This document shows, in pieces, positions 9,440 to 11,947 of a stretch of 64,000 nt of DNA. The stretch is from a virus (lineage: Duplodnaviria > Heunggongvirae > Uroviricota > Caudoviricetes): IMG/VR virus record IMGVR_UViG_3300045988_147321. One strand, given 5' to 3'. The notes under the pieces were generated by a model. That model was given only the letters and a program-made list of their open reading frames with translations. It did no database searches and was not told the DNA's origin. A program made the translations under genes and the position numbers. Each line of letters begins with the position of its first letter. Position 1 is the stretch's first letter.

Positions 9440-9445
9440 TGAAAC

Positions 9446-9480
9446 CTCGTAGAATCTGGTGTGTTAACCGATTCTACGAG
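9446..9480. promoter_or_regulatory. perfect 11-bp inverted repeat CTCGTAGAATC-N13-GATTCTACGAG overlapping promoter -10 and the SD of the downstream tail gene
   Basis: Read directly; one arm contains the minus-sense TAGAAT, the other the GAGG Shine-Dalgarno. Confidence 0.35.
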
Positions 9481-9490
9481 TTGTCATTTG
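9471..9490 (-). promoter_or_regulatory. candidate late promoter (TGACA-N6-TAGAAT, minus-strand sense)
   Basis: Near-identical to the element at 42110-42128 upstream of the other baseplate block. Confidence 0.3.
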
Positions 9491-9593
9491 TTACCGGTCA
9501 GTCTACACATTTCAGATACTACGTTAAAACAACTCAAGTGCTTCAAGTAGCACATCGTCATCAACACCCAATCCGAAGATGCGGAGATAAAAT

Positions 9594-10778
9594 TCAAGCC
9601 TTAAGAGGCTTTGTGTATGTTCGTGTAATCCAACCAGTAATAAACTCATCCCCTGATTTAACCTGCACGTAAAGCCATTGACGATCTTTCTTATCTAAAA
9701 TAGCAACAATTGTGTTTTTGCCAATGCATTCAATCACTTCACTATTTAAAGAAGGACTGACATGTAATCTTACGTTATCACCAGTTATAAACCTAAAACC
9801 ATTGAGATCTTCCCACTTAATTTCTGTGTTTTCTTTAATTAATTTTTGTTTTGATATTGGTGCATCCTCATATAGGGATACAGAATATGATTCTGTCTTG
9901 TGTATTTGCGATAAGATTTGTTCTTTTGCATAATCAGCAATAGCGCCAAGCACCACTTCTGTTAAAAGCCACATAATAATAAACTGAAGCGGGTGAGGGA
10001 GCGACTTAAATGAATCAATGAACGTCGAACTGGATTTATTTAATCCTTTGTCTTGAACATCACTTTCGTTGTGAGATGTTTCAATAGCACCTTCGACATA
10101 AGCCTGTGCAATTGATGAAAGACTTTGCTCCATTATTTGATGTAATGAAGCCTTTTGCGCTAGGGTATATTGTTTTAATGATTCTTTTATTTCATTGTTT
10201 AAATCTATCTTATGACTTACATTTTGTCGCAATTCATTAAGTATTGCTTGCATGTTATTTAAACCAGCTTGCTTATTAAGCATCTCGAACTGGTTTCGTA
10301 ACGGCATAGCAATTTCTGCCTGCTTCCTTAGCATTTGAATGTATTTATTTGCATCATGCGGGGGATAAACCTTGGCCTGTTTCTGTAGAATTTCAAGAAA
10401 TTCACGATGCTTGCTATTTATTCTTCTCAAGCTCGTCATGTTCGCAAGCTGTTTTTTAACAGAATCACTAAGTAACGATTGCAAATTCAATCTTGCTATT
10501 TGTTCTTGAGCTAGCCGCCCTATTCTTAACTGTTCTTGCAAGTTTGCCATATGTTCTCTATACGATGGAATGATTGCGTTTTTTTGCAGTTCTGCCAACT
10601 GTCTAACCAAATTATTAGAAGCATATTCTGATTTTAATAAATCACTTGCCGATGTATATCCTGGCATTTTGATTTTACTTAAATTATCACGCCAGGTAAT
10701 ATTTGAATCTCTATTATAGAGATCGCTTACTGAGCCAAGTGCAAGTTTTTTAATATCCTTCACTTTATTCACCGTCAT
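9594..10778 (-). CDS. membrane-anchored coiled-coil protein with C-terminal SH3b-like domain, 394 aa
   Basis: Hydrophobic segment FIIMWLLTEVVLGAIA; C-terminal SH3b-like signature (NVRLHVSP ... WLYVQV ... GWI); AT-rich coding sequence. Confidence 0.5.
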   Translation of the reverse strand: MTVNKVKDIKKLALGSVSDLYNRDSNITWRDNLSKIKMPGYTSASDLLKSEYASNNLVRQLAELQKNAIIPSYREHMANLQEQLRIGRLAQEQIARLNLQSLLSDSVKKQLANMTSLRRINSKHREFLEILQKQAKVYPPHDANKYIQMLRKQAEIAMPLRNQFEMLNKQAGLNNMQAILNELRQNVSHKIDLNNEIKESLKQYTLAQKASLHQIMEQSLSSIAQAYVEGAIETSHNESDVQDKGLNKSSSTFIDSFKSLPHPLQFIIMWLLTEVVLGAIADYAKEQILSQIHKTESYSVSLYEDAPISKQKLIKENTEIKWEDLNGFRFITGDNVRLHVSPSLNSEVIECIGKNTIVAILDKKDRQWLYVQVKSGDEFITGWITRTYTKPLKA

Positions 10779-11271
10779 CTTGCTTTAAACATCCATCATT
10801 TTTAGCTTCCTTGTAAATACTTGAAATTCCATCAAGAGAGAATGATGTAATTCGACGCGATCCGATATATACATCCATGTTTTTTTCTTTTGTGGCTGAC
10901 GCTGACTTCCAAAAAGAATACCATTCCCTACGATTTGGAGCAGTGTTTTGCGTACCAATATTAAAGCTATCCGAACCAACAATTAAGGTAATTACATCAG
11001 CTTTACGAGAAATTGTGTCGCGTGTAGAAAAATCAGCATTCTCTTTCCCTCCACTTACATACAAATTTCTTCCAGCTATATGATCTTCGGAACCTTCCCT
11101 TGCTCCAGCATCACAAGAAAAGTTAATTGTATAACCATCGTCATTGGTTGCAGAGATTTCTCTCCACCCTTGCTCACCTCCTACCGTCCAAACGGTAGAA
11201 CCTGCCATTGCTGATAATGGCAGAAAAGAGGACATTAATAAAAAGCTATACAATGACTTATATAATTTCAT
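10765..11271 (-). CDS. secreted protein with N-terminal signal peptide, 168 aa
   Basis: N-terminus MKLYKSLYSFLLMSSFLPLSAMAGS; 14-nt overlap with downstream gene start; AT-rich. Confidence 0.5.
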   Translation of the reverse strand: MKLYKSLYSFLLMSSFLPLSAMAGSTVWTVGGEQGWREISATNDDGYTINFSCDAGAREGSEDHIAGRNLYVSGGKENADFSTRDTISRKADVITLIVGSDSFNIGTQNTAPNRREWYSFWKSASATKEKNMDVYIGSRRITSFSLDGISSIYKEAKNDGCLKQDDGE

Positions 11272-11359
11272 ATTTTTATCCTTTTTGTTTTAGATATTAT
11301 AGGCATAGTCCATATTGTTAGATCCACTATGCCCAGAGAATTTAATATTATTCATTAAA

Positions 11360-11878
11360 TTATGGAGCTACACCCGGCCCCCTGGCTCGTTCTTCAAGCG
11401 TACCCTGCACGTTTTGATGGCGCATTCCTGGGGCATTTCTGATTGAGTCAATGCCATTTCTTCCAACATCTTCTTTATTAACGGCATTGCTCGCCACCAG
11501 CACACCCCAGCTAGGGATAGCAAAATCAGGAGCTGTTTCGCATGCCTTTACCATATAATCGAAAGTGCTTCGATTGATCTCATTTGCATCGGGGTTTAAT
11601 AGGCGAGAATATTGGTATTTAGCATTTGCGTTGGTTGAGACTTTATACAGTTCCTGCTGCACCATCGCTTCAGAAAGTTTAAGGCGCTTCATATCTGACA
11701 GTAACTTCTTGCGCATGGATTCGTCTTCACTGACAGCAAATCCGTAAACGTGCCCAAGGTATTTCGTATAATCGGTACAAATCTCCTTTACGCTTGATGC
11801 TGCATTAACAGTCCCAGCCATAAATAATAACGGTAGTAATAGTTTTCTCATTATAACCTCACCTGCCTTATAACTCAT
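11360..11878 (-). CDS. secreted protein with signal peptide; candidate superinfection-exclusion (Sim-like) protein
   Basis: Signal peptide MRKLLLPLLFMAGTVNAA; C-terminal PGMRHQNVQGTLEERARG matches Sit segment GRGMRREVVQGTLEERARG; sits where P1 has the sim locus, next to immI. Confidence 0.45.
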   Translation of the reverse strand: MSYKAGEVIMRKLLLPLLFMAGTVNAASSVKEICTDYTKYLGHVYGFAVSEDESMRKKLLSDMKRLKLSEAMVQQELYKVSTNANAKYQYSRLLNPDANEINRSTFDYMVKACETAPDFAIPSWGVLVASNAVNKEDVGRNGIDSIRNAPGMRHQNVQGTLEERARGPGVAP

Positions 11879-11947
11879 TTAGGGTACATATTTTCGCCTT
11901 TAAAAAAAAGAGGTTATTAGATCCAATTGTGCATTTATTAAACAAAC

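Follow-up and report, generated by a model that had tools for sequence, protein, structure and literature searches.

Bacteriophage P1 is a classic model phage, and its sim slot is a known exclusion locus. Here we examine the occupant of that slot in a P1-like phage-plasmid, the virus record IMGVR_UViG_3300045988_147321 (below, the window, meaning the whole stretch of 64,000 nt that was analysed). Three minus-strand open reading frames (ORFs) lie there between pmgC (8873-9439) and the immI region. The one nearest to immI, gene 3, is a long form of simA, and its product ends in a segment that also occurs in Sit, the tape-measure protein and injection transglycosylase of the same element.

In P1 the slot carries simABC, which has the slot, the orientation and the upstream region next to the C1 operator Oc4 in common with the window, and to whose simA gene 3 corresponds. 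SimB and SimC are signal-peptide proteins, as are the products of genes 2 and 3. The P1 locus differs in that it carries SimB and SimC, whereas the window has YfjT-family and SH3b proteins instead, without SimB/SimC homology. The Upf50.0/Upf50.5 cassette of P7 is an alternative occupant of the slot and encodes secreted or lipoprotein envelope proteins, but it contains neither a SimA-like gene nor the motif described below, and its DUF5384 protein is unrelated to gene 2. Relatives of gene 2 are YfjT and YkfB of E. coli K-12, which are also secreted or lipoprotein envelope proteins.

Ltp of phage TP-J34 and gp15 of HK97 are extracytoplasmic prophage products that prevent DNA entry, with a specificity set by the tape-measure protein; exclusion by both is overcome by changes in that protein, and HK97 injection requires, besides the tape measure, a periplasmic chaperone and an inner-membrane protein (PMC10883804). 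Neither is related to gene 3 in sequence or fold. Ltp is a lipoprotein and gp15 a membrane protein, whereas the gene 3 product has neither a lipobox nor a transmembrane (TM) segment, and neither has been reported to carry a copy of a tape-measure segment, unlike gene 3. Ltp is all-helical. Spackle (Sp) of T4 is a small helical periplasmic protein that stops the gp5 tail lysozyme of superinfecting relatives; the equivalent of its target enzyme in P1-like phages is the SLT (lytic transglycosylase) domain of Sit.

A motif shared by gene 3 and Sit

The three genes were found as ORFs on the minus strand at the positions given in the initial annotation of this DNA. They and the parts of Sit that concern them are as follows.

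9594-10778, minus strand: gene 1 ORF, 394 aa
10765-11271, minus strand: gene 2 ORF, 168 aa, overlapped over 14 nt by gene 1
11360-11878, minus strand: gene 3 ORF, 172 aa from the ATG at 11878, or 163 aa (11360-11851) from the ATG at 11851
11378..11437, minus strand: Sit-like motif NAPGMRHQNVQGTLEERARG at the C-terminus of gene 3 (BLASTP and pattern scan)
3899..7273, minus strand: sit ORF, tape-measure protein/injection transglycosylase, 1124 aa
4733..5050, minus strand: SLT domain of Sit, residues 742-847, an allele 26-44% identical to that of P1
4415..4474, minus strand: motif copy in Sit, NGRGMRREVVQGTLEERARG, residues 934-953 (BLASTP and pattern scan)
4244..4270, minus strand: second half-copy in Sit, NSPGMRKNN, inside an insertion of about 45 residues that is not in Sit of the Salmonella/Klebsiella type

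Gene 3 terminates in NAPGMRHQNVQGTLEERARGPGVAP, while residues 934-955 of Sit, about 85 residues past the SLT domain, read NGRGMRREVVQGTLEERARGKG. The sequence common to both is N-x-x-G-M-R-x-Q-x-V-Q-G-T-L-E-E-R-A-R-G, and the motif in its general form is F-x-N-x-x-G-M-R-x-Q/E-x-V-Q/E-G-T/S-L-x-E/D-R-A-R/Y-G. BLASTP aligns the two proteins with 51% identity over 41 aa (E 9e-8), which bears out the earlier observation that the third protein ends in a Sit-like segment. Across the 17-codon core, 37 of 51 DNA positions are identical and many of the differences fall at third codon positions, so the segment was not copied recently at the DNA level; the amino acids are retained while synonymous differences approach saturation.

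A six-frame scan of the 64 kb found the patterns N..GMR and GTLE.RA in gene 3 and Sit only, apart from one chance match to N..GMR. When 2.9 million viral contigs were scanned with the pattern [PR]GMR[HR][QE]xV[QE], 149 stretches were obtained, 122 of them confirmed relatives; the best 80 of the matching stretches, which were kept, are all of the Sit type and lie on contigs that recur in other P1-like searches. The motif is restricted to the Sit and SimA-like families. It is thus not a repeat common to many P1 proteins, a possibility that the initial annotation had itself raised.

Both families hold on to the motif. It is present in all Sit variants, down to 38% identity of the surrounding region, with G, M, R, V, G, R, A, G and G invariant, and Sit retains it also in phages that have no SimA-like gene, such as those with loci of the P1 sim type. 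In the SimA-like family, each of the 19 aligned members has N..GMR.Q after the helical domain, two of them (P0008 and P0009) with rare substitutions. This 8-residue core is the best-conserved block of the family: in an alignment of 12 sequences the mean pairwise column identity reaches 0.82 in the core, as opposed to 0.65 in the helical domain and 0.48 in the linker. The second half of the motif, xVxGxLxxRAxG, is found in about half of the members, and the others run into unrelated Cys-containing hairpin tails. The most divergent member (P0047, 42% identity) reads NAPGMRHQAVKGSMAERARG, and Sit on the contig of a close relative reads NAPGMRHQVATGSMADRAYG. Sequence 3' of the motif is freely replaced or lost in SimA-like genes. 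The window protein stops 3 residues past the motif, and natural short forms stopping just past it occur in several lineages (179 and 176 aa). Retention in all Sit variants, the rank of the core as the best-conserved SimA-like block and the replacement of the tails beyond it together show that purifying selection acts on the motif in both families.

In an AlphaFold2 (AF2) model of gene 3, residues 19-125 are helical with a predicted local distance difference test score (pLDDT) above 90, and the motif-bearing tail has a pLDDT of 37-66. The motif is thus predicted to lie in a flexible tail, as is usual for short linear interaction motifs.

Two further observations concern the Sit side. The first half of the gene 3 motif (GIDSIRNAPGMR) is more like the half-copy in Sit, GIDGLFDKLRNSPGMRKNN, than like the first Sit copy. 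A 37-aa Sit peptide spanning the motif also matches phrog_669 ('endolysin', positions 1134-1168 of 1946, E 2e-6) and phrog_13449 ('transglycosylase', profile positions 192-221 of 269).

Gene 3 and simA of P1

The likelier start of gene 3 is the ATG at 11851, which is preceded by AGGTGAGG and is also the start used by PGAP and in the Ro157c2YLVW record. A Sec signal peptide can be read from the sequence (...GTVNA/AS, with the slash at the cleavage site), and the cleavage region GTVNA/ASS contains no Cys, hence no lipobox of the kind that marks Ltp as a lipoprotein. The protein matches phrog_3933 over residues 10-171 (E 2.4e-113), and PGAP names it 'simA domain protein'. It is 96% identical over 161 aa to a 215-aa protein of Ro157c2YLVW, of which it lacks the 54 C-terminal residues. 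The helical domain of the family measures about 105 residues and contains one invariant Cys pair in the family alignment.

P1 SimA (52 aa; MSYKAGEVIMRKLLLPLLFMAGTVNAASSVKEICTDYTKYLGHVY...) is identical to gene 3 over the first 45 residues and diverges at the junction into simB; the upstream region, the ribosome-binding site and the first 45 codons are common to the two genes. Because 45 identical residues are followed by a recombination junction into simB, P1 simA is a stump, namely the first 45 codons of a longer conserved gene that was cut by the junction that brought in simB and simC. In P1 it is annotated as a putative accessory superimmunity gene (window 11712-11851 against P1 L001:2976-3134). 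Among the plasmids of PLSDB, at least 80% of the 163-aa protein is present in 126 and the stump alone in about 141, so that roughly half of the simA-bearing P1-like plasmids retain the long form. The comparison with simA, simB and simC proposed in the initial annotation was therefore fruitful for the first gene, in that the 172-aa ORF is a long simA, but nothing here resembles the other two: tblastn finds SimB and SimC homologues in P1-type loci only and not in the window, and the translations of all three window genes are unrelated to them.

The SimA-like family is very narrow: 5.8 billion proteins contain 28 clusters of it. When 1.84 billion representative proteins were searched with a profile, only 12 matches were returned, made up of SimA-like members or fragments and of one weak match, to a 2425-aa repeat protein (P0053), that was judged spurious. 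A Pfam match of gene 3 to PTP-like phytase (E 2e-5, below the cut-off and confined to the helical region) was likewise taken as spurious. A fold search with the gene 3 model gave nothing meaningful, including no significant match to Spackle or other solved inhibitor folds. Nothing was found in NCBIfam, nor in sequence searches of the PDB with the three proteins, Sit and a motif profile, and no defence-system model of PADLOC-DB matched any of the three proteins better than E 0.12. DNA comparison of the 3' junction of gene 3 with short forms of the Salmonella type gave a hint of similarity, insufficient to trace a donor. In the most divergent element (L164, IMGVR_UViG_2871745582_000001), the SimA-like gene is not beside pmgC and sit, and therefore moves independently of the tail module; its neighbours are a small secreted protein, a membrane protein, an RdgC-like gene, a large methyltransferase and a DnaB-type helicase.

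A possible decoy of the incoming Sit

We tentatively propose that the exported SimA-like protein excludes superinfecting relatives by presenting its motif as a decoy. In a lysogen the protein would reside in the periplasm, the compartment that Sit would enter when a P1-like phage contracts its tail, and its tail would display the motif there. Such a decoy might take up a host or phage partner needed by the Sit motif, or might co-assemble with the incoming Sit. Either event would disturb passage through the peptidoglycan or formation of the inner-membrane channel, and DNA entry would be blocked. Gene 1 would contribute an inner-membrane protein with a periplasmic SH3b domain, added in cassettes of the window type. 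Export, expression in the lysogen and the exclusion mechanism as a whole are what we infer, whereas the gene structure, the location, the homology to simA and the identity, restriction and conservation of the motif are shown.

Interference with Sit-dependent entry is the most economical reading since the compartment fits, the slot is an exclusion locus, escape by mutation would be costly given that the motif is invariant in Sit, and there are precedents in which a tape measure is the target. D6-like prophage variants have also been found to diverge jointly near the sim gene and in sit (PMC6799933). A competitive mechanism had been suggested in the initial annotation. The observation behind it is confirmed and the interpretation partly supported: competitive mimicry is plausible and fits the predicted export, the disordered tail, the strong purifying selection in both families and the tape-measure exclusion precedents.

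Several points weigh against the decoy. The exclusion phenotype of P1 is attributed to simC and not to simA, of which P1 holds only a remnant. About half of the SimA-like family has the 8-residue core alone before its unrelated Cys tail. In a covariation test on 8 distinct genomes the SimA-like motif was no closer to the resident Sit than to foreign Sit proteins (permutation p = 0.11), and by eye a ninth pair (L164/L165) left this result unchanged. The slot is a general hotspot for morons, unrelated envelope genes such as the P7 cassette included. On the Sit side, an AF2 model of the C-terminal 423 residues has a mean pLDDT of 39 and is uninformative, and Sit was not resolved in the cryo-electron microscopy structure of P1 (PMC12810830).

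The sim slot and its occupants

The boundaries of the slot and the elements that flank it are as follows.

9493..11949, no strand: variable cassette slot, the P1 sim locus, between the pmgC/LPsit flank and the C1 operator Oc4 (blastn junctions)
9471..9489, minus strand: late promoter LPsit (-10 TAGAAT, -22 box) upstream of pmgC, in the conserved left flank (P1 feature table and sequence comparison)
9596..9611, minus strand: terminator-like hairpin at the gene 1 stop codon, upstream of LPsit (consensus scan only)
11948..11964, plus strand: C1 operator Oc4, AATGCTCTAATAAATTT, one mismatch to the consensus, between the cassette and c4/icd/ant (P1 annotation)
12146..12231, plus strand: C4 antisense RNA of immI (Rfam RF01695, 68.4 bits; RF03163, 56 bits), with a1b1 targets at 12025-12077

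By blastn, homology to P1, P7 and Ro157c2YLVW ends on the left at about 9492-9500 and restarts on the right at 11950 for P7, at 11712 (inside simA) for P1 and at 11372 for Ro157c2YLVW. All three genes face away from Oc4 and are divergent from immI, as is the P1 sim locus. The P1 junctions, Oc4 and the c4 RNA agree with the initial placement of the genes at the sim position, with a C1 operator between them and the divergent immI. In P1-like phage-plasmids the sim slot is hypervariable, and the region is one of its alleles. Across the window, and counting matches with at most 3 mismatches, there are 13 C1-operator-like sites against 0.43 expected by chance (e.g. at 13619, 28574, 32096, 47918 and 62348), as expected for an immunity network of the P1 type. 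A promoter consensus scan was uninformative, sites being fewer than in shuffled sequence.

The sim region has been described as low-GC hypervariable region 4, one of eight such regions in P1-like phage-plasmids (PMC9603915). Gene 1 has a GC content of 0.35, gene 2 of 0.379 and gene 3 of 0.445; the value for the whole window is 0.474, and pmgC, sit and ant1 lie at 0.467-0.494. The AT-richness that had been ascribed to all three genes relative to their neighbours is evident in genes 1 and 2, whereas gene 3 shows it only slightly.

Occupants of the slot were classified from 69 viral contigs plus further loci.

Window: SimA-like protein of 163 aa, YfjT-family protein and SH3 protein
Ro157: SimA-like protein of 215 aa and a different YfjT-family protein
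P1: SimA stump of 43/52 aa, SimB and SimC
One locus: SimA-like protein of 212 aa and a SimC-like protein (34% identity)
Salmonella/Klebsiella/Cronobacter D6-like: SimA-like protein of 176-246 aa and YfjT-family protein
P7: DUF5384 protein and weakly TraT-like lipoprotein, no SimA

The single locus of the fourth type (L049:10681-11451, on one viral contig) has a full-length SimA-like gene followed by the SimC-like protein, from which it follows that both gene types can coexist and that SimC has divergent relatives. In P7, Upf50.5 (L003:2264-2785) is a lipoprotein whose TraT-like match is weak (E 7e-5, below the cut-off), and it adjoins the DUF5384 protein; TraT is the surface-exclusion lipoprotein of F-like plasmids. 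PLSDB has 35 plasmids with the complete module of the window type, and 32 of 5426 complete E. coli genomes contain it too.

The membrane and secretion features first ascribed to the three products were all recovered: a TM segment in gene 1, and signal peptides in genes 2 and 3. For gene 2, a Sec signal peptide can be read from the sequence (...LSAMA/GS). The protein belongs to the YfjT/YkfB family, according to precomputed PF27224 matches on an identical protein (P0040) and on the partners at other loci, and the PGAP name agrees. It matches phrog_3429 (E 4e-70), is 28% identical to the 158-aa partner of Ro157, and two Cys are invariant in the family alignment. Since a YfjT-family member follows the SimA-like gene in every lineage examined, except at loci that have SimB/SimC or a SimC-like protein instead, the conserved core of the cassette is the SimA-like and YfjT pair. 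The three genes do fill the slot together, but their unity as a module was overstated; the SH3 gene is an add-on of the window-type cassette.

Gene 1 is predicted to encode a bitopic membrane protein with an N-terminal coiled-coil region and one hydrophobic segment near residues 263-285. Residues 334-388 match SH3_3 (PF08239) over 52 of 54 profile positions with E 1.1e-5 and 26.0 bits, the cut-off being 27; PGAP names it an SH3 domain-containing protein, and it matches phrog_7086 (E 1.6e-200). The GenBank phage collection does not contain it. Its variants share 53-100% identity, a range that also holds for their N-terminal 260 or so residues between otherwise similar cassettes, while the C-terminal SH3b/TM part hardly varies. 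In otherwise near-identical cassettes the N-terminal coiled-coil region falls to about 35-50% identity, with a 33-residue deletion, which suggests diversifying exchange of the coiled-coil domain.

An alternative to the decoy is that these genes form a lysogenic-conversion module of the envelope that benefits the host, for instance in stress or serum resistance or peptidoglycan association, and has nothing to do with phage entry. The shared motif would then be a generic periplasmic element also needed by Sit, for example a peptide that binds a chaperone, a protease or peptidoglycan. The P7 cassette, with its DUF5384 protein and weakly TraT-like lipoprotein, would be in keeping with this, as would the putative SH3b domain of gene 1, which is of a peptidoglycan-binding type, and the failure of the three proteins to match known defence systems in PADLOC-DB. 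The YfjT/YkfB relatives, moreover, are named after proteins of E. coli K-12 cryptic prophages. However, a generic periplasmic signal would be expected in host proteins or in those of other phages, whereas, outside the SimA-like family, only the tape-measure protein of the same phage group has the motif; the SimA-like family is confined to P1/D6-like elements, and the slot is a known exclusion locus of P1. We regard a host-benefit module as possible but rather unlikely.

The transglycosylase allele of Sit

Sit is an essential tape-measure protein of P1 (PMC10695390). Outside the SLT domain, Sit of the window and P1 Sit are 96-100% identical; within it (region 4600-5200, residues about 690-890) identity drops to 26-44%, which is an allelic swap of the enzyme domain. 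The nearest match to the window SLT allele in the phage collection is Cronobacter phage JK004, at 64%. Window-type cassettes, defined by their gene 2, occur with the window SLT allele (4619-5176) at 10 of 12 viral loci, compared with 2 of 37 for other cassettes (Fisher p 5e-7), and in 33 of 35 plasmids. The pairing of YfjT and SLT subtypes recurs in Salmonella/Klebsiella backbones, where 6 loci are concordant and the intervening genes follow the backbone.

This association may reflect an allele-specific transglycosylase inhibitor resembling Spackle or an immunity protein, and simple linkage fits it as well, the loci being about 5 kb apart and the sampled plasmids clonally related. Under the inhibitor explanation, allele-specific binding to the SLT domain of the incoming Sit would fall to the YfjT-family protein, perhaps joined by the SimA-like one, and the motif would act as a docking element whose normal place is beside the SLT domain. 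The position of the motif just downstream of the SLT domain is compatible with such docking, as are the matches of the motif peptide to PHROGs annotated as endolysin and transglycosylase and the restriction of the differences between the window and P1 Sit proteins to this one domain; the action of T4 Spackle on gp5 lysozyme provides a precedent. Yet 23 of 56 plasmids with the window SLT allele have no window-type gene 2, phage JK004 is discordant for the YfjT/SLT pairing, and the SimA-like protein is nearly identical in cassettes linked to either SLT allele. An inhibitor of this kind seems unlikely.

The decoy and the inhibitor could also act jointly as a two-part periplasmic system against injection, in which the SimA-like protein would be the decoy or docking peptide of the post-SLT motif and its YfjT partner the allele-specific SLT inhibitor. 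We consider this doubtful. If true, it would explain why both the SLT domain of Sit and the cassette are swapped as alleles and why the two are associated across E. coli and Salmonella/Klebsiella backbones, and it would give a role to the orphan YfjT/YkfB proteins of E. coli cryptic prophages.

It is very improbable that the tail of gene 3 is a relic of an old recombination with sit, in a gene that is truncated and decaying like P1 simA and now has no function. Recombination junctions do abound in the slot, P1 simA is plainly a remnant, and 54 C-terminal residues of the 215-aa form are missing from the window protein. However, the amino acids of the motif are conserved despite heavy synonymous divergence and in relatives of 42% identity, the short forms of 179 and 176 aa in other lineages stop naturally just past the motif, and the 163-aa form is intact in the 35 plasmids and 32 complete E. 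coli genomes.

Implications for exclusion among P1-like phage-plasmids

The slot and its variability are already known. In the literature searched we did not find the reading of simA as a stump, the conserved motif of tape-measure origin or the pairing of SimA-like and YfjT proteins. The stump, the motif adjacent to the Sit transglycosylase and its restriction to two families bear on the mechanism of sim exclusion and on the part of Sit that follows the SLT domain. They also bear on the passage of a contractile-tail phage through the periplasm and on how a prophage could block that step by mimicking its target, and they might offer a first functional handle on the YfjT and YkfB y-genes. If true, mimicry of an invariant motif would exclude relatives in a way that is difficult to evade. 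Resistance genes are spread in Enterobacteriaceae by P1-like phage-plasmids, and exclusion among these elements therefore affects which of them can co-occur.

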